Part shown: in pieces, positions 36,262 to 44,287 of the stretch
How the letters are laid out: every line of letters begins with the position of its first letter
How positions within the stretch are numbered: position 1 is the stretch's first letter
Assembly: GCA_965224085.1 (NCBI GenBank)
Contig: CBDCYI010000005.1
Location: forward strand, 2,112,001-2,176,000
DNA: 64,000 bases
Reading direction: 5' to 3'
DNA from: Candidatus Marinacidobacterales bacterium
Lineage (GTDB): Bacteria; Acidobacteriota; Vicinamibacteria; Marinacidobacterales; SMYC01
Translations under genes and position numbers: made by a program
Notes under the pieces: model-generated
What the model was told of the DNA's origin: nothing
Seen by the model: the letters and a program-made list of their open reading frames with translations, nothing else
Databases searched by the model: none

Positions 36262-36290
36262 AGGGATCGGTGGGCCGCGCGCTGGGGATG

Positions 36291-38183
36291 GTCGAGTAGC
36301 TCAGCCATTCGGCTTTCGCCCTCACAGATCCGAGCGTGCGGCTTTCCCGCACTCGGCTCCTCCTGAAGGTATACCCGAAATCAGACAAGGCAAGGTAGTC
36401 GGGACGGAGTGAGGTGAGGGACTGGTAGGGGAAAGCGCTCCAACAACAAGTGAAAACGAGGCCAGGTCATTCGGCGCTGACTCCGCCGACGAAGGCTTCG
36501 AAACCACAACCGTGTCACCTCCTCAGAAAAGGATTGGAGAGAGCGGATGTTGCTGGGAAGTCCGTAGTACGCGTAGTGACCGCGCAGCACCTGGCAAAGC
36601 CAGCGATGCTGGACGGCGACTGGAGCATGCATACGTTGCTTCGCGCGAAGCCGTAGCGACTTGAGTTTGGCTCGTAGCCGCTGGCTCTGCGTTTTGCGCT
36701 TCACGACGAAACGGCCATCGCGGGTTCTCCCACAATAATGAGTGAAACCCAGGAAAGCGAACGTCGCACACCGCCAAAGGCCCCGTTGCTCGCGTGACAA
36801 GGAAGGTAATCTCCCGAACTCGAGCAAACGGGTCTTGTTCTCGTGGAGCGCAAGCCCGAATCGGGCTAGTCGCTCCTTGAGCGCTCTCATCATCCTGCTG
36901 GCATCGGTCCGATGCTGGAAGCCCATGACGAAGTCGTCAGCGTATCGCACGATGGAAATACGGCCTTGTGCTTCGAGCCGGCGCCATCGATGAACCCACA
37001 GATCTAGAACGTAGTGCAGAAAGACGTTAGCCAAGAGCGGGCTCACACCTGCCCCTTGCGGTGTCCCTTCAGTTGTCTCGCTCCACTCTCCTTTCTCCAG
37101 CACGCCGGCTCGCAACCACTGACGGATGAGTCGAAGGATGCGTTTGTCGGCGACCCGGTGCGAAAGCATCCGCATCAACCACTCGTGGTCCACCGAGTCG
37201 AAGAACTTGCGGATGTCCGCGTCGAGAACCCAGTTCACGCGTTGCGTCATGAGCGCGGTGTGGAGCGCGTGCAACGCTTGGTGCGGGCTCCGTCCGGGCC
37301 GAAACCCGTACGAGAACCCGATGAAATCGACTTCGTAGACGGCGCTCAAAACCTCGGCTACCGCTCCTTGGACAATCTTGTCTTCCAGTGCGGGGATGCC
37401 AAGAGGGCGCTTTCCGCCATCCGACTTAGGAATGTACACGCGCCGCACCGGTAGTGGTCGGTAGCGACCGGCGTGTACCCGCGAGCAAAGATCCTTGATG
37501 TTGCTCACGAAGTTCTTCTCGTAATCGGCGACAGTCTCTCCGTCGACACCAGCGCTTGCGCTGCGCTTCAACCGACGAAACGCTCGATAGAGCGCTTCGT
37601 GATCCACGTGATGCAGCAACGCAGTGAACCGAGCCTTTCTATCTCGCTTCGCTGCTTCGTTCACCCGCGTGAGATTTGGCGGTAAGGCGACCCGGCGCTG
37701 TGTCCGGACCTTAGCCCTCTCCCGTGGGTTCCCTCCAGGCCGATCCCTTCCCTCCACCATCTCGTTGCCTTCGATAGCTTCCTCAGTACTATGAATCGGT
37801 CCGACTTCCGGCCTCAGCTCAGCACCGCGCTTCGGTTTTCCCTTGCGCGACGCCCCCATCGGTGACCATTCCGATGGACCCGGCCGGACCTCCTGGGTCC
37901 CGAAAGGAACTCTTCGTACGTGATGTGGTCCACGACCCCGGCGGAGCGTAACCATCTCGCGATAGCGATGGCCCACATGCTGCCTTCATTGACGGGAATC
38001 AACTCGGCCTTCCGCGATATTCAGCATTTCGAGGCTACATTCACACACCCTGCACGACCCCTGTCTACGCTTCGGACCCCGCGTTGCCACGACGCCCGCA
38101 AGACTCGGTCCCGACCTGTCCGCTACGACTTTTGGTCGGATTGGACTTCCACCCATAGGCTCCTTTCAGTTAGCCCAGCGCAC
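36291..38183 (-). mobile_element. Group II intron A, copy 1 (complete, 1893 nt)
   Basis: 5' GTGCG at 38183; DV GAGCCGAGTGCGGGAAAGCCGCACGCTCGGATC; DVI ending CTACTCGAC at 36291; RT ORF inside. Confidence 0.92.
36381..37760 (-). CDS. ltrA: Group II intron reverse transcriptase/maturase, no endonuclease domain
   Basis: RPLGIP, SYGFRPGR, GTPQG, RYADD, FLGF and maturase VLRGHYAYY. The start codon is uncertain. Confidence 0.92.
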   Translation of the reverse strand: MVEGRDRPGGNPRERAKVRTQRRVALPPNLTRVNEAAKRDRKARFTALLHHVDHEALYRAFRRLKRSASAGVDGETVADYEKNFVSNIKDLCSRVHAGRYRPLPVRRVYIPKSDGGKRPLGIPALEDKIVQGAVAEVLSAVYEVDFIGFSYGFRPGRSPHQALHALHTALMTQRVNWVLDADIRKFFDSVDHEWLMRMLSHRVADKRILRLIRQWLRAGVLEKGEWSETTEGTPQGAGVSPLLANVFLHYVLDLWVHRWRRLEAQGRISIVRYADDFVMGFQHRTDASRMMRALKERLARFGLALHENKTRLLEFGRLPSLSREQRGLWRCATFAFLGFTHYCGRTRDGRFVVKRKTQSQRLRAKLKSLRLRAKQRMHAPVAVQHRWLCQVLRGHYAYYGLPSNIRSLQSFSEEVTRLWFRSLRRRSQRRMTWPRFHLLLERFPLPVPHLTPSRLPCLV

Positions 38184-39629
38184 TCCCGGCCGCTGTTGAA
38201 TTTGGTCGGGTAGCGGCGGCACCTGTGAATACTCTTAGGCAGCAAACTCATCGCTGTCAAGAGATTTCTGTTTGCTTCTAAGCGCGTGAACGAGAGCGCC
38301 CATATGGCGATAGCCTTTGATACGCCGGAACTTCTTCTCCGCCGTGACGACGCCGAGAGCGGTCCATCGGCGAACCATCGAAGGACTCTTCCAACGCTTG
38401 ACGTTTCTCGATACTCTTCGAATGGTTCCGTTGAGATTCTCAATGGCGTTCGTCGTGGCAAGAGACTGGCGAAGTAACTCGGGCAGAGCGAGCTTCACGA
38501 CCGTGAGCGTCTCTTCCATCCCTTCGCGAAGGCTTCCGGCAGCTTCATCGTGGCTGTTTCGCTCGAGCCACGACACCAATGCCTGAAGTCGCTTGCGCGC
38601 CTTGTCGGCACTCTTGCACTTGTAGGCTTTCTTCATCGTCTGGAGCACGTAGGCGTGACGAGACTTGGGAAGGTACGAGCGAAGATTTCGGAGTTTATGG
38701 ATCTGGCACCTTTGGATGACCGCGAGATCCCCCAACACGTCGACGAGTGCCTTGCGGATACCTTTGCCTCCGTCCACTACACAGAGAATCGACTCATCGA
38801 CGCGCAAGCCTCGCTCGAGAAGGTCCTGCAACATCGCGGTGCACACCCGAGAGTTTTCCGTCGAGCCCAGCCATATACCCAGGGGCACCTTCGTTCCATC
38901 TATTGTGATACCGAGAGTTACGACGACGGTCTGGCCGGCCACCTCAAGGCCATCCATCATCAGTGCCGCAAGTTCGTACTCCTCTAGCCGCCGAGACAGG
39001 TATTGCTCGAGCTTCTTCGTCGTCTGGCTCACGAGGTGACGGCTGGCGGCACTCTTGCTCGTGCCACGAGACTTCAACTTGGCCGCGGGTTTGTCCAGAC
39101 TCCGTTCGTAATTTCGGGTCGATACCCCCACCAAGATCTGATTCAACACTCGCTCTGGAAGCGGGTCTTCTTCGCGGAAGGCTTCGAAGTGTGGAAGCGA
39201 CGCCTCCTCACCAGACTTCGAACGCACTCGAGGTCGCGACACTTGGATGCGACGACCACCGAAGCTCAGCTCTCCGTTCGTGCTCCCCCAGTGGTTATGA
39301 GTTCGCTCCTTCTCGTGCTTGCCCTTGAGCCCCGCGACCTCCTCGGCGTCCTCTCTGAGCAGTAGGTGCAGAGCTGTCAGTCCTTGCTCGTACACCCATT
39401 CCGTCAGATCCGCCTTCGTGGCCGCGATCCCAGCTATCATCGGTAGCAGTATCTGACCGGCTTGGCCAACTACCTTGCCCGTAGGCGAGTGCGTTTGCTT
39501 TCTTACTGGCTTCTTTGATTTCCTAGGCATTGGTGGCTCCTTGTCCCCCTCTGGAGACGGTTGTTTGGCAGACCTATTCTTAGGCCGGCCAAGGAGCCGC
39601 CGCTACCCCAAATTCAACAGCGGCCGGGA
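38184..39629 (-). mobile_element. IS256-family element core; both IR tips cut off by intron insertions
   Basis: IRs 38184-38220 and 39596-39629 (GCCGCCGCTACCC[GAC]CAAATTCAACAGCGGCCGGGA). The displaced left tip GGGGATG is at 36284-36290. Confidence 0.88.
38235..39530 (-). CDS. IS256-family (Mutator) transposase
   Basis: RPRVR, GVSTR, MDG, VVDGGKG, QRCQIHKLRN and TTNAIENLN motifs. Confidence 0.93.
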   Translation of the reverse strand: MPRKSKKPVRKQTHSPTGKVVGQAGQILLPMIAGIAATKADLTEWVYEQGLTALHLLLREDAEEVAGLKGKHEKERTHNHWGSTNGELSFGGRRIQVSRPRVRSKSGEEASLPHFEAFREEDPLPERVLNQILVGVSTRNYERSLDKPAAKLKSRGTSKSAASRHLVSQTTKKLEQYLSRRLEEYELAALMMDGLEVAGQTVVVTLGITIDGTKVPLGIWLGSTENSRVCTAMLQDLLERGLRVDESILCVVDGGKGIRKALVDVLGDLAVIQRCQIHKLRNLRSYLPKSRHAYVLQTMKKAYKCKSADKARKRLQALVSWLERNSHDEAAGSLREGMEETLTVVKLALPELLRQSLATTNAIENLNGTIRRVSRNVKRWKSPSMVRRWTALGVVTAEKKFRRIKGYRHMGALVHALRSKQKSLDSDEFAA

Positions 39630-40025
39630 GTGCGCTGGGCTAACTGAAAGGAGCCTATGGGTGGAAGTCCAATCCGACCAAAAGTCGTAGCGGACAGGTC
39701 GGGACCGAGTCTTGCGGGCGTCGTGGCAACGCGGGGTCCGAAGCGTAGACAGGGGTCGTGCAGGGTGTGTGAATGTAGCCTCGAAATGCTGAATATCGCG
39801 GAAGGCCGAGTTGATTCCCGTCAATGAAGGCAGCATGTGGGCCATCGCTATCGCGAGATGGTTACGCTCCGCCGGGGTCGTGGACCACATCACGTACGAA
39901 GAGTTCCTTTCGGGACCCAGGAGGTCCGGCCGGGTCCATCGGAATGGTCACCGATGGGGGCGTCGCGCAAGGGAAAACCGAAGCGCGGTGCTGAGCTGAG
40001 GCCGGAAGTCGGACCGATTCATAGT

Positions 40026-42058
40026 GTGTGCTGGGCAGCGTCCAGATCAGGAAGGTTGAAGTCCCTCTGGTGCTCGGATGAGGAGCGCCATATCCAAAAG
40101 CGGGGGTAACGCCTCGCTGGCCGGGGAACGCGGATAAGGAGAACCCTAAACGGGCACGAAGTTGGAAACGATGGCTACTGCCAAGGGGATGTACCTAAGT
40201 TCGGGTTCTGTCCACTGGACAACTGGAGGACAGGGTGTCCACCGCGAGGTGGAATCTGAAGGGTATGCGGAGCAGTACCGGGCCGTAATCGAGGGGGCGA
40301 CCCCGTTGATGAACCGGTCGGCCAAAGGTGGGGCAAGGTCGAGCCTGCACTATGGAGGCGAAGGCGTTCTCATTCACCCACCGAATCAAGGTGTTTGCGG
40401 ACGGCACGGTACGGAAGATCTGGACGTGACCCCAGGAGGGCTCATTGGGTTCCCGAGTGGCGTCGGGATAAGCGACCCTATAAGCGAGAGCGAAATGGGA
40501 AGTGAAGCCGGGTGAGTCGTCGGACAGCCCAATAGTACCTGAAGCGCGGTGAAAGTCGTGTGATCGAGAGATCGGCAGCCGAGTGGGCTGGGGAAGGGGG
40601 CTGGCAAAGGTGGTTGGTGACAACAAGGATGACAGACGAGTAAGGGCGATGACGCGGATAAGTTCCTTTAGTGAAAGACCCAGAAGTGATCGTCCGAGGA
40701 AACTGTCGGCCTGGTTGAACCCAACGGGTGAGAGGAAGGTCCACTCTCTGGTGGACAAGATATACAAGCGGAAGAACTTGGAGCTGGCCTGGAACCGAGT
40801 GAAGCGGAACAAGGGTGCCGGTGGCATCGATGGACAAACTCTGGACGAGTTTGAGGAGCAGCTTGATGCGCACCTCAACCGACTCCATGAGGAGCTCAAG
40901 ACCGATGCCTATCGTCCACTACCTGTTCGGCAGAAACTCATTCCCAAGGCTGGACAACCGGGAAAGTTCCGCCCGCTCGGCATTCCGGCCGTTTATGACC
41001 GCGTGTGTCAGCAGGCACTGCAGAACCGGTTGGAACCGATCTTCGAGCAGGTGTTCGATGCCGCCAGCTTCGGATATCGACGAGGAAGATCGACAAAGGA
41101 TGCTTTACGCAAGATCTGGCAAGAGATCGAAGAGGGTTACGAGTGGATCGTGGATGCGGATCTTTCCAATTTCTTTGGGACTGTGGACCATGAGAAGCTC
41201 CTCGCTCTTGTTGCCAAGCGAGTGTCGGATGGTCGCGTCCTTCGTCTTATTCGCAGCATGCTCAAAGCAGGCTGCATGGCGGAGGGGAGACGGCTCCCGA
41301 CCGAGCAAGGTGCACCGCAAGGCGGTGTGGTCTCACCGATCTTAAGTAACGTCCTTTTGACTCCGTTTGATCGGGAGATGCGCCATCGTGGCTATCGCCT
41401 GACGCGGTATGCCGACGACTGGGTCGTGACATGCTGCACCAAGGCAGAGGCCCAGAAGGTGCTGGCCGAAGCCCGGATGATCCTTACGACGTTGGGTGTA
41501 ACCTTGAACGTGGAGAAGACTCGTATCGTTCACGTTGCACACGGCTTCGAGTTCTTGGGATACAAGATCAAGCGGGGTAGTCGCCCTTTGGCCCTACCCT
41601 CACACAAGATCCGTACGGGTGTCCGCAAGGGTGACCTGTACGCGTACCCTCGACAGAAGTCGCTCCAGCACTTCAAGGATCAGATTCGGCGACGGACCTG
41701 TCGCAAAGCTCCTGTGAGTACGCAGCAGCTAATCGACGAGATCAACCCGGTTATTCGCGGTTGGGGTCTTTACTATCATAAAGCTCACGTCCGCAAGCTC
41801 TTCGCGCGTCTCGATCGTTGGATCCTGCGACGTATCTGGTCGCATCGGTTCAAACGCTGGCGCTGTCGGGGGTGGAAGCAGCTCCCGGAGCGTCAGCTCT
41901 ACGATGAGATGGGCCTCGTACGCTTTGTCTTCCTGATTCCTTCCATCAAGCCGCGATGAATAATCCAACCTTTGTGAAAGCCGGATACGGGAAAACTGTA
42001 TGTCCGGTTTGAGCGGCGGACGGGGGTCAGCGCTGCGGTGCGCCCCCTCCGACCCGAC
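40026..42058 (+). mobile_element. Group II intron B (complete, 2033 nt), nested in intron A
   Basis: 5' GTGTG; DV AAAGCCGGATACGGGAAAACTGTATGTCCGGTTT; 3' CCGACCCGAC. Removing it restores copy 1's CATAGT|ACTGAGG exactly. Confidence 0.92.
40583..41959 (+). CDS. ltrA: Group II intron reverse transcriptase/maturase (intron B)
   Basis: HSLVDKIY, NKGAGGIDG, RPLGIP, GAPQGG, RYADD and INPVIRGWGLYY. The true start may be downstream. Confidence 0.92.
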   Translation: MGWGRGLAKVVGDNKDDRRVRAMTRISSFSERPRSDRPRKLSAWLNPTGERKVHSLVDKIYKRKNLELAWNRVKRNKGAGGIDGQTLDEFEEQLDAHLNRLHEELKTDAYRPLPVRQKLIPKAGQPGKFRPLGIPAVYDRVCQQALQNRLEPIFEQVFDAASFGYRRGRSTKDALRKIWQEIEEGYEWIVDADLSNFFGTVDHEKLLALVAKRVSDGRVLRLIRSMLKAGCMAEGRRLPTEQGAPQGGVVSPILSNVLLTPFDREMRHRGYRLTRYADDWVVTCCTKAEAQKVLAEARMILTTLGVTLNVEKTRIVHVAHGFEFLGYKIKRGSRPLALPSHKIRTGVRKGDLYAYPRQKSLQHFKDQIRRRTCRKAPVSTQQLIDEINPVIRGWGLYYHKAHVRKLFARLDRWILRRIWSHRFKRWRCRGWKQLPERQLYDEMGLVRFVFLIPSIKPR

Positions 42059-42084
42059 ACTGAGGAAGCTATCGAAGGCAACGA

Positions 42085-43231
42085 GATGGTGGAGGGAAGG
42101 GATCGGCCTGGAGGGAACCCACGGGAGAGGGCTAAGGTCCGGACACAGCGCCGGGTCGCCTTACCGCCAAATCTCACGCGGGTGAACGAAGCAGCGAAGC
42201 GAGATAGAAAGGCTCGGTTCACTGCGTTGCTGCATCACGTGGATCACGAAGCGCTCTATCGAGCGTTTCGTCGGTTGAAGCGCAGCGCAAGCGCTGGTGT
42301 CGACGGAGAGACTGTCGCCGATTACGAGAAGAACTTCGTGAGCAACATCAAGGATCTTTGCTCGCGGGTACACGCCGGTCGCTACCGACCACTACCGGTG
42401 CGGCGCGTGTACATTCCTAAGTCGGATGGCGGAAAGCGCCCTCTTGGCATCCCCGCACTGGAAGACAAGATTGTCCAAGGAGCGGTAGCCGAGGTTTTGA
42501 GCGCCGTCTACGAAGTCGATTTCATCGGGTTCTCGTACGGGTTTCGGCCCGGACGGAGCCCGCACCAAGCGTTGCACGCGCTCCACACCGCGCTCATGAC
42601 GCAACGCGTGAACTGGGTTCTCGACGCGGACATCCGCAAGTTCTTCGACTCGGTGGACCACGAGTGGTTGATGCGGATGCTTTCGCACCGGGTCGCCGAC
42701 AAACGCATCCTTCGACTCATCCGTCAGTGGTTGCGAGCCGGCGTACTGGAGAAAGGAGAGTGGAGCGAGACAACTGAAGGGACACCGCAAGGGGCAGGTG
42801 TGAGCCCGCTCTTGGCTAACGTCTTTCTGCACTACGTTCTAGATCTGTGGGTTCATCGATGGCGCCGGCTCGAAGCACAAGGCCGTATTTCCATCGTGCG
42901 ATACGCTGACGACTTCGTCATGGGCTTCCAGCATCGGACCGATGCCAGCAGGATGATGAGAGCGCTCAAGGAGCGACTAGCCCGATTCGGGCTTGCGCTC
43001 CACGAGAACAAGACCCGTTTGCTCGAGTTCGGGAGATTACCTTCCTTGTCACGCGAGCAACGGGGCCTTCGGCGGTGTGCGACGTTCGCTTTCCTGGGTT
43101 TCACTCATTATTGTGGGAGAACCCGCGATGGCCGTTTCGTCGTGAAGCGCAAAACGCAGAGCCAGCGGCTACGAGCCAAACTCAAGTCGCTACGGCTTCG
43201 CGCGAAGCAACGTATGCATGCTCCAGTCGCC
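42085..43231 (+). pseudogene. Truncated intron A RT (C-terminal maturase lost)
   Basis: Matches the copy 1 protein up to KQRMHAPVA, then reads into foreign sequence. Confidence 0.85.
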
Positions 43232-44039
43232 ATCGGGCTCGACGAAGAGGGCACCAATCTAGTTCTCTCCCGACCGATCGATACGATCTCGGCGCCCGGG
43301 CGTTGCGGGCGGTGTGTCGGCGGCGCGCCGACCTTGTAATTGAAAACCTTGCTCTGCGGCAGCAGGTGACGGCGCTCAAGAAGGAGCGCCCCAGGCCACC
43401 GCTCGACGACACGGACCGCGCATTCTGGGTTGCGCTCCGAAGCTCGTGGCCGGCGTGGGCGAGCCGCTTGGTCATCGTCAACGCAGACACAGTCGCCCGG
43501 TGGAATCGGGATCGATTCCGACGATTGGACTCGGAATCTCGCGCAGACGCTATCCAGGCCGACCTCGGATTGATGCCGAGACCCGCCACCTCATCCGCAC
43601 GATGTCGCAAGACGGCTGGGGCGCACCTCGTATCCACGCCGAGCTCAAGAAGCTCGCGGCGGCAGTTTCCGACCTAGCGCTCAGCGGTACCTCGCTTGTA
43701 TATCAGCTACCCACGAGGATCGTTGCCACTTGGGGCTCGAAAAAGACACGCCGAACGAGAGACTCATTACGCCGCGACCGTCACCCACGGCGAAAGTTGT
43801 CGCGCTGCCGAGAGTTGGTGGACTGCACCACCGCTACGCGTGGAGCGACGCAGCGTAGGGCAGTTTTATCGTCGCGAAACTCGCACCGCGGGAGCAGTCG
43901 TAGCTTGTGTTCTCCAGTTCGTGAAACCACAGGCCGCGTGTTCCTGGCAGCGTTTCGCCTACGTCGAGTCCGCCATCGTCCTCATCGCCGAGCCCCATGG
44001 GCCCAACTGTACCAGCGGACTAATAATGATGACGGACAG
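43232..44039 (+). mobile_element. Degenerate integrase-core (rve) IS remnant
   Basis: ENLALRQQ...DTVARW...WGAPRIHAELKKL is joined by a deletion to YHEDRCHLGLEKDTP...VGGLHHRY. Boundaries are approximate. Confidence 0.7.
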
Positions 44040-44287
44040 GTGTGATTGTTGGTCCTTCGCCATGATCGTGATATGGTCTGTGTGCGGTAGTGTATCGAAC
44101 GCCGTTCGCCAATGTTGAGTTGCGCGTCGGGTAGCGCAGGGAATCGTTGAATCGCCACGATAGTCGTCCTCAACGGGCTGTTCTCGGAGGCTGAGCACGG
44201 TGACCATTCTTACGGGCTGCGCGCCCAGCCCGTATGGGCTTTCGTTGTAGTCCGCAGCGGAGCGGGACCTTCGTAAGGAGAGAATGG

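Follow-up and report, generated by a model that had tools for sequence, protein, structure and literature searches.

We analysed a 64,000-nt stretch of DNA from Candidatus Marinacidobacterales bacterium (Acidobacteriota; assembly GCA_965224085.1, contig CBDCYI010000005.1, positions 2,112,001 to 2,176,000 of the forward strand), hereafter the window, in which mobile elements are nested one in another. The innermost of them is a group II intron, intron B, which interrupts one of two copies of a second group II intron, intron A; the two A copies, in inverted orientation, flank the transposase gene of an insertion sequence (IS) of the IS256 family. Positions given below are those of the window unless a contig of the source assembly (C4, C9 and so on) is named.

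Intron B is a complete group II intron (40026–42058, + strand; 2033 nt) which starts with GTGTG and ends with ...CCGAC; as expected at group II boundaries, the 5′ end fits GUGYG, the 3′ end fits AY and target-site duplication is absent. Its domains V and VI (D5/D6; 41976–42058, + strand) match Rfam RF00029 with 41.3 bits, barely above the cut-off of 40 bits, and the same match is found in all seven copies of B in the genome. Domain IV contains an open reading frame (ORF) for a reverse transcriptase (RT)/maturase, as in mobile group II introns (40649–41959, + strand; 436 aa from the ATG), with Pfam matches to RVT_1 (1e-42) and GIIM (1.4e-15) and with an intact YADD motif. No endonuclease domain was detected in this RT, Pfam giving RVT_1 and GIIM and nothing else. 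Its relatives in PDB are group II RTs, the best being the GsI-IIC RT (1.4e-68). The hairpin with exon-binding site 1 (EBS1) occupies 40343–40359 (+ strand) and reads GCCT-GCACTATGG-AGGC, EBS1 itself being ACUAUG at 40349–40354. By RNAalifold, the 3′ strand of domain II (D2) of B together with the junction between domains II and III (J2/3) is GAGUCGUCGGA (40514–40524, + strand), and its domain III (D3) spans 40525–40603 (+ strand) with a loop AAUAGUA, which differs by one base from the sequence that B targets.

Assignment of B to class C (IIC) was considered. Two traits are class-C-like: of the RTs with a solved structure that of GsI-IIC is the nearest, and an EBS2 was not found. The ribozyme (∼620 nt for domains I to III) is nevertheless too large and EBS1, with 6 nt, too long, and we leave B unassigned to a class. 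The targets of B are also D3 loops of introns, not terminator-like hairpins.

The host copy, intron A2, lies on the + strand in two segments. The 5′ segment (39630–40025) is identical to nt 1–396 of the other copy, A1, matches Rfam RF02005 at 39664–39887 and comprises domain I (D1), D2, J2/3, the 5′ strand of the D3 basal stem and AUAGU. The 3′ segment (42059–43234), 99.7% identical to nt 397–1572 of A1, carries the rest of D3 and the RT ORF; at 43234 the intron is cut off by unrelated sequence, so D5/D6 are absent. Close to the insertion, GGAAGUCGGA (40004–40013, + strand) makes up the 3′ strand of the D2 basal helix and J2/3, and is conserved in hosts at −21 to −13. It is followed by CCGAUUC (40014–40020, + strand), the 5′ strand of the D3 basal stem, which overlaps intron-binding site 1 (IBS1) CATAGT (40020–40025, + strand), the last six bases before B. 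The 3′ strand of the basal stem, GGGAUCGG (42099–42106, + strand), is on the other side of B and pairs with CCGAUUC (7 bp, one G-U). The Rfam matches of both introns are on the + strand, as in a twintron.

Intron A1 (36291–38183, − strand; 1893 nt) is complete and uninterrupted and provides, at a distance of 2 kb, the empty-site reference for B. It matches RF02005 at 37926–38149 (140.9 bits) and, with its D5/D6, RF00029 at 36291–36361 (53.2 bits), and it is 99.9% identical to other genomic copies of A. The RT ORF of A1 (36381–37760, − strand; 459 aa from the ATG) has a YADD motif and, on a longer ORF, an RVT_1 match at 6e-39; its ATG is inside the 3′ half of D3 and the true start is uncertain. 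Matches of the A RT in PDB are group II RTs. In A1 the sequence ...GATTCATAGT|ACTGAGG is contiguous, while alignment of A1 with the two halves of A2 places the split exactly at 40025/42059, with zero bases duplicated or lost. A preliminary description of this DNA, made from its letters, had given the positions of B and of the ACTATG loop, a precise insertion at CATAGT|ACTGAGG and a three-level nest of IS256, intron A and intron B. All of these hold, the nest being supported by the position of A 7 bp inside the terminal repeat of the IS256-family element and by an empty end of that element at C4:895340.

Comparison of sequences within the genome, across species and in metagenomes makes it very probable that B is a mobile group II intron which is active now or was so until very recently, and that its lineage homes to domain III of other group II introns. 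When the whole assembly (12 contigs, 6.87 Mb) was searched by BLAST with B, A and the IS as queries, B turned up in seven copies that share 100% identity along their 2033 nt and are present in different contexts. There are 11 copies of A that carry the site; 6 are occupied by B at the same position and 5 are empty. The seventh copy of B (C9:853583–855615) has different flanks, ...GGGTCGGTAGT|AGCGTTGAAACGGGG, with the junction GGTAGT|A. Its host, intron C, is of another family, as indicated by a match to RF02003 (120 bits) 270 nt upstream on the same strand; downstream of B there is an internally deleted remnant of an RT ORF and then a D5-like hairpin (read by eye). An empty copy of intron C, 99% identical, is found at C4:1590845–1591737, and two diverged copies are empty too, the site reading CGTAAT|A and CATATT|A. 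The presence of B both in A and in the unrelated intron C indicates that B moved on its own, into two unrelated introns.

Intron C forms a family of four copies (L001 4168–7090 in C9; C4:1590845–1591737; C5:970707–971463; C11:1238946–1239513). In two near-identical copies the N- and C-terminal ends of the RT ORF are fused by an internal deletion, and no GUGYG is seen at the 5′ end where the copies begin to align. A loose regular-expression scan of the genome for more D3-like sites gave 70 matches, mostly single chance matches. One genome repeat with eight copies, GACAGGTGC(G/A)TCCTTCATAGTAAGCTACTGCTCACATCG..., contains CATAGTA, yet is without B.

A scan for relatives of the B RT in one genome per species (185,579 species) gave 13 loci, and B-like DNA was present at 11 of them, with 74–77% identity and mostly over the full 2033 nt. 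The carriers are Singulisphaera (4 loci), Caballeronia, Paraburkholderia and metagenome-assembled genomes (MAGs) of Planctomycetota, Myxococcales, Acetobacteraceae and, in two cases, gammaproteobacteria. All nine readable 5′ junctions, spread over Planctomycetota, Myxococcales and alpha-, beta- and gammaproteobacteria, have the form ...GA(A/G)GTC(A/G)GA, 5–8 bases, C(A/G)TAGT| (the flanks of L009 and L012 are identical). Parts of another intron on the same strand accompany the B relatives: RF02005 or RF01998 matches (Rfam D1D4-6 or D1D4-1) just upstream in L009, L010, L012 and L007; a second D5/D6 ∼1.4 kb downstream in L007, L009, L011, L013 and L015; and group II RT ORFs (Pfam RVT_1) downstream of the B-type intron in L011, L012 and L015. 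The host RTs and the A RT have mutual identities of only 32–43%, thus the hosts belong to more than one family. The host appears to be cut short on the downstream side in L006 and L014. A match was also found in nine plasmid records; we inspected three, Paraburkholderia hospita pmHSR1_P, Bradyrhizobium barranii pCC829_3 and Cupriavidus sp. P-10 pMTS2, and observed the same junction in all of them. In L007 the domain III of the B relative itself contains the target in exact form, CAUAGUA.

For a wider survey of insertion sites in metagenomes we used a search pattern wholly internal to the intron (nt 5–15 and about nt 75–90 of B; 26 exact bases and one Y position), so that flanks cannot bias the result; such a pattern samples fairly close relatives only. 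At least 119 loci had the pattern. With 6 loci removed for having <30 nt upstream, the other 113 gave 104 distinct 30-nt flanks, and the counts from this survey given here and below are among the matches listed. The control was a set of 20,000 random 30-nt windows from the same contigs. C[AG]TAGT ends 74 of the 104 flanks as compared with 0.035% of the controls; the strict D2/J2-3 motif is present in 85 flanks (1.2% of the controls) and the loose one in 102 (19.5%). The last six bases are CATAGT in 41 flanks, CGTAGT in 33 and CATATT in 9, most of the others being one-base variants, and the frequencies at positions −6 to −1 are C 0.92, A 0.60 or G 0.38, T 0.98, A 0.94, G 0.84 and T 0.97. From −21 to −13 the flanks have the consensus G-R-A-G-T-C-R-G-A, in which the conserved letters reach frequencies of 0.65–0.86. 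Both ends of the intron were present at 39 loci, 33 of them with usable flanks, and the +1 base was A in 32 of these 33. We further picked 20 loci for long upstream sequence and scanned them with Rfam: a D1–D4 match of a host was located immediately upstream on the same strand in 12 (RF02005 in 7, RF02001 in 3, RF02003 in 2), host D5/D6 were found downstream in 2 more, and the remaining 6 had no independent match. The preliminary description had proposed that B specialises in other introns. This proposal is supported by the nine genome junctions, every one of which follows the intron motif, by the D1–D4 matches or RT ORFs and D5/D6 of a second intron around the B relatives, and by the fractions of metagenome flanks with the strict and the loose motif.

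Two of the metagenome loci have unusual arrangements. In L022 (2960–4200, minus strand) a C-type intron has an empty CGTAGT|A site in domain III; an A-type intron is inserted in the 3′ part of the C-type intron, and a B-type intron in domain III of that A-type intron, which makes a further nest of several levels. In L088 the 3′ flank of the B-type intron resembles the domain III of B-type introns, and this may be a case of B inside B.

The element of B that would recognise the target is the ACUAUG loop. B, with its 2033 nt, has a single ACTATG; as ∼0.5 occurrences would be expected by chance (2028/4096), the hexamer carries little weight by itself. Its position and conservation are more telling. 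The GCACUAUGG loop is at the tip of a long D1 arm, where EBS1 is expected, and the 4-bp stem below it is 100% paired in nine relatives, with compensatory changes (CCU/AGG, CCC/GGG, CUG/CAG) and covariation at pairs 329/341 and 330/340; the loop is unchanged in eight of the nine. Among the 116 metagenome loci with at least 8 nt upstream, loop and 5′ flank were both readable in 59 (one further regular-expression match was spurious). A variant hexamer was seen in 10 of the 59, and in 6 of these 10 the change was matched in the intron's own 5′ flank: AGUACG with CGUACU (2 loci), AGUAUG with CAUACU, ACUACG with CGUAGU, ACUGUG with CGCAGU and ACUAUU with AAUAGU. That variants of the loop track variants of the flank identifies ACUAUG, together with the covarying stem and the conserved loop, as EBS1, as had been suggested earlier from complementarity.

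We considered two candidates for EBS2 and rejected both. AAUCG (∼40288) is complementary to the CGAUU 5′ of IBS1 in A; its partner in nine relatives is UGAU, the helix of the two showing a compensatory change from AU to GC, and AAUCG also does not track the variable host bases −7 to −12. In AUCYGA, which would pair with the host UCRGA, the Y pairs with an invariant G in B (GC in five relatives, GU in four). Bases −7 to −12 vary freely among hosts.

To place the site within the host ribozyme, RNAalifold was applied to the 5′ 650 nt of nine B relatives. The consensus contained 155 pairs, 47 of them with compensatory change, and was laid out as D1 (columns 6–420), D2 (421–508, 3′ strand GAGUCGUC), J2/3 (GGA) and a third domain (512–591). 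This third domain has a 6-bp basal stem directly followed by (A/C/G)AUAGUA, with GGGGAAG closing the other side; all 6 pairs of this stem are preserved, and in 4 of the 6 both partners have changed. Over the named stems (EBS1 hairpin, D3 basal stem and two D3 hairpins; 19 pairs) 98.2% of positions are paired and 11/19 pairs are changed on both sides; none of 500 shuffles reached this pairing, and slid controls were 29–47% paired. The same order is seen in the hosts: D2 3′ strand, RGA, a variable strand of 5–8 nt, then AUAGU|A. The partner of the variable strand is located beyond the insertion, just past a GGGAA or GCGAA block, and stems of this kind are CCGAUUC/GGGAUCGG in A, GUGCCCC/GGGGCAC in L009, GGCCC/GGGCC in L014 and CUGGUCC/GGGGCCAG in B. 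barranii. For the 33 junction pairs among the matches listed, with the 3′ strand required to come after AA or AAG, the mean longest helix across the insertion was 4.48 bp against 3.32 bp for re-paired flanks (0 of 10,000 permutations); an unconstrained search for complementarity gave 5.61 bp for true and 5.14 bp for permuted pairs and did not discriminate. The RF01998 consensus contains AGAAgUCAGCAGAgGcCAUAGU, with GcCAUAGU in a stem and GcC paired across the following segment. Taken together, the folding of the nine relatives, the same layout in hosts, the complementary stem halves and the RF01998 consensus support a site in the internal loop next to the basal stem of D3, on the 5′ strand of that loop, in agreement with the domain III motif that the preliminary description had named.

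A small hairpin closing GUCRGA (e.g. GGGG...CCCC in L009) was also considered, and the longer stem spanning the insertion was preferred. Single-sequence minimum free energy folds of restored hosts gave inconsistent structures and were left unused.

These data show precise and repeated insertion, a junction common to the lineage, a site in domain III and pairing of the EBS1 loop ACUAUG with the six bases just 5′ of B, and they suggest the following course of events. The B ribonucleoprotein would reverse-splice into the DNA of a host intron at the homing consensus C-R-U-A-G-U|A, preceded in the host by the D2 3′ strand and J2/3 (G-R-A-G-U-C-R-G-A). The A at +1 would be read by an EBS3-type contact; pairing of an EBS2 with the variable stretch −7 to −12 would not be needed, which would explain hits on host introns of several types. 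Priming of cDNA synthesis at replication forks is established for other group II introns that lack an endonuclease. Since no endonuclease domain was detected in the B RT, the same priming may be expected here. Judging from the anatomy, the host would splice and move only after removal of B, because B splits domain III by 2 kb and its EBS1 binds the loop bases. Splicing of the inner intron before the outer one is described as usual for twintrons in the part of the review by Zimmerly and Semper available to us (PMC4424553).

Several points weigh against this reading or limit its reach. Splicing, its order and the route through DNA targets are all inferred. Among the matches listed, 19 of the 104 distinct flanks fail the strict motif and a few, e.g. 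those of L085 and L126, resemble ordinary DNA and may be ectopic insertions; the specialisation of the B lineage in introns is strong, not absolute. Four of the 10 variant EBS1 loops have no matching change in the flank, and neither an EBS2 nor an EBS3 was located in B. Conservation of the block at −21 to −13 may reflect constraint on the host ribozyme and not recognition by B. The assignment to domain III comes from comparative folding and not from a solved structure, and at least 5 contiguous stem pairs were seen in only 13 of the 33 complete junction pairs (among the matches listed). A pattern that samples close relatives only does not fix the depth of the B lineage. Finally, some loci seem to be chimeras in which the sequences on the two sides of the intron come from different hosts. 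In L119, L132 and L135 the B-type intron appears to have one type of host on its 5′ side and another on its 3′ side, with no pairing between the stem halves, which suggests recombination between B copies in different hosts.

Alternative explanations concern the place of the site, the nature of the conserved block, the origin of the copies and the route of entry. As in the twintrons of Thermosynechococcus, the site could belong to domain IV, the part that binds the RT close to the start codon; in A the first in-frame ATG (42086) follows the site after only 61 nt and is itself in the region enclosed by the stem. Such a placement is decidedly improbable given that the homologous AAUAGUA of B relatives is in the third domain, after D1 and D2 and upstream of D4 and the ORF, that the ORF of the host in L012 starts past the 3′ strand of the enclosing stem, and that this stem covaries between hosts, as seen in A, L009 and B. 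barranii. The conserved upstream block (GARGUCRGA...CAUAGU), found beside nearly every B relative, could also be a 5′ extension travelling with B-type elements and not a target at all. We consider this extremely improbable: the block is present without B at the empty sites of A1, four more A copies and intron C; the sequence around the conserved positions varies freely, with 104 distinct flanks among the matches listed; the strand beside the block pairs with the far side of B; and the upstream Rfam matches come from three D1–D4 families.

Homing to introns, as opposed to copying along with them, is the reading we keep for the distribution of B. Passive copying would require one chance ectopic entry into A, followed by duplication of the composite (IS with A and B, or A with B inside), with no preference for introns. 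The near identity of the A and B copies within the genome would fit, IS-A-B modules do recur at C11, C4 and C9, and recombination between repeats is plausible, chimeric flanks being seen in metagenomes. This account is contradicted by the seventh copy, whose host is the unrelated intron C, and by the junctions in other species, where unrelated hosts of other phyla hold B relatives at the homologous site; moreover, single IS modules hold one occupied and one empty A (the window; C4:256433 versus C4:257880), and we judge it very improbable. A route through RNA, with B reverse-splicing into transcripts or lariats of the host intron, followed by reverse transcription and recombination, is also unlikely, if the least so of the four alternatives. 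Group II introns are able to reverse-splice into RNA, and the target would be single-stranded and exposed in a folded, abundant RNA. Against it, retrohoming of every bacterial group II intron studied uses DNA targets, according to the consulted part of PMC4424553. The truncated A2, which is without D5/D6 and splicing-incompetent, is occupied too, although truncation could have come after the arrival of B.

Bacterial twintrons have been treated as rare curiosities, and the intron-into-intron homing known to us concerns close relatives, within one genome, at sites in domain IV or in ORFs. The comparisons that follow are with the systems as presented in the parts of the cited papers that were available. 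In Thermosynechococcus elongatus, TeI3 is found inside TeI4 (Mohr, Ghanem and Lambowitz 2010, PMC2882425); there too introns home into introns, and some introns of that genome target an insertion sequence (PMC2882425). Insertion in T. elongatus is into domain IV, at a point that separates the first ATG of the host ORF from the second (PMC2882425), whereas the site of B is in the internal loop of domain III. The inner introns of T. elongatus are ORF-less, borrow the host RT and are closely related to the outer introns of that one species (PMC2882425), whereas B brings its own RT, its hosts are of several distant types and its lineage spans phyla. The nests of Methanosarcina acetivorans (Dai and Zimmerly 2003, as summarised in PMC4424553) are like those of B in repeated site-specific homing to a perpetual homing site, and unlike them in that homing is into related intron ORFs in one archaeal genome (PMC4424553), while B goes to a ribozyme motif across intron classes. 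In Trichodesmium erythraeum, T.e.I7 and T.e.I8 are distantly related introns, each with an RT, for which sequential splicing has been shown in vivo (Pfreundt and Hess 2015, PMC4649490). That case differs from B as a single locus in a protein-coding gene, with the inner intron in domain I of the host and, as far as the available text goes, no sign of an intron-dedicated lineage (PMC4649490). The Porphyridium twintron involves domain IV (PMC4476101). In the full-text literature available, part of it as excerpts, we found no lineage that targets domain III or a shared ribozyme motif; a prior entry in the Zimmerly intron database is possible. Homing of introns into introns is thus already known, and a lineage apparently aimed at domain III is the new part as far as the literature found goes.

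As a broader interpretation, we are inclined to think that a multi-phylum, RT-encoding clade lives almost wholly as a parasite of group II introns through the domain III motif CRUAGU|A, apparently without EBS2 and with a broad range of hosts, gating their splicing and mobility. If true, the internal loop of domain III would be among the few sequence motifs common to many intron classes, and the lineage would act as a built-in brake on other introns and as a generator of self-perpetuating nests (IS, intron within it, intron within that). The lineage appears to use a conserved motif of the catalytic core of other introns as an address, which suggests that intron parasites may gate the splicing and spread of introns, and it could serve as a model for how an intron with a short EBS1 and without an evident EBS2 recognises its target. 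It would also offer a case from nature of selfish elements that parasitise one another, with three levels. Carriers include cultured Singulisphaera, Paraburkholderia, Caballeronia, Cupriavidus and Bradyrhizobium as well as >100 metagenome contigs, and the named plasmid copies in cultured strains make the system directly testable. Pipelines that discard multi-intron loci, as described in the available parts of PMC4028801 and PMC8919778, would systematically miss the B lineage and its hosts.

The outermost level of the nest is the IS256-family element, whose body between the two A copies (38184–39629) matches Pfam Transposase_mut. The transposase gene is at 38235–39530 (− strand; Transposase_mut 4.5e-42), and the outer 7-bp tip of the terminal repeat, GGGGATG on the + strand, is at 36284–36290, split from the IS body by A1. 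Membership in the IS256 family is indicated by the Mutator-type transposase and by terminal inverted repeats found with BLAST, one end being read intact at C4:895340. This intron-free end reads ...GGCCGGGA|CATCCCC and continues into unique DNA. Next to all 12 A 3′ ends in the genome there is CATCCCC, followed by divergence, and the 5′ flank of every A copy with a 5′ end reads ...CAAATTCAACA-N7-GGGA. The genome has four full-length IS copies, with A present at 7 of their 8 ends. The site of A is 7 bp inside the terminal inverted repeat; because the repeats are inverted, the two A copies face outwards in opposite orientation, and the right-hand one in the window carries B. Insertion of A parts the IS tips from the transposase-proximal repeat, and the IS is probably immobilised thereby.

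RmInt1 in ISRm2011-2 is an example of an IS-targeting group II intron. Intron A is like such introns, as described in the available part of PMC2882425, in having a conserved IS sequence as its homing site; it is unlike them in that the site is inside the terminal inverted repeat and both ends of the IS are hit. Downstream of the break in A2, the ORFs 43075–43677, 43446–44045 and 43696–44118 have no Pfam match, and translation of 43235–44120, judged by eye only, resembles the start of an IS-type integrase. Intron A is itself a specialist for IS ends (window 36284–39629; C4:895340, C11:1218034–1219481, C4:256434–257881). Bases −5 to −11 of its 5′ exon vary (AGCGGCC, ATCCGGC, AGCCGGC, AGCCGCC, ATCCGAC), the rest of the IS repeat being constant, and this variable patch (e.g. 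window 39615–39629 and 38184–38198) coincides with the expected IBS of A.

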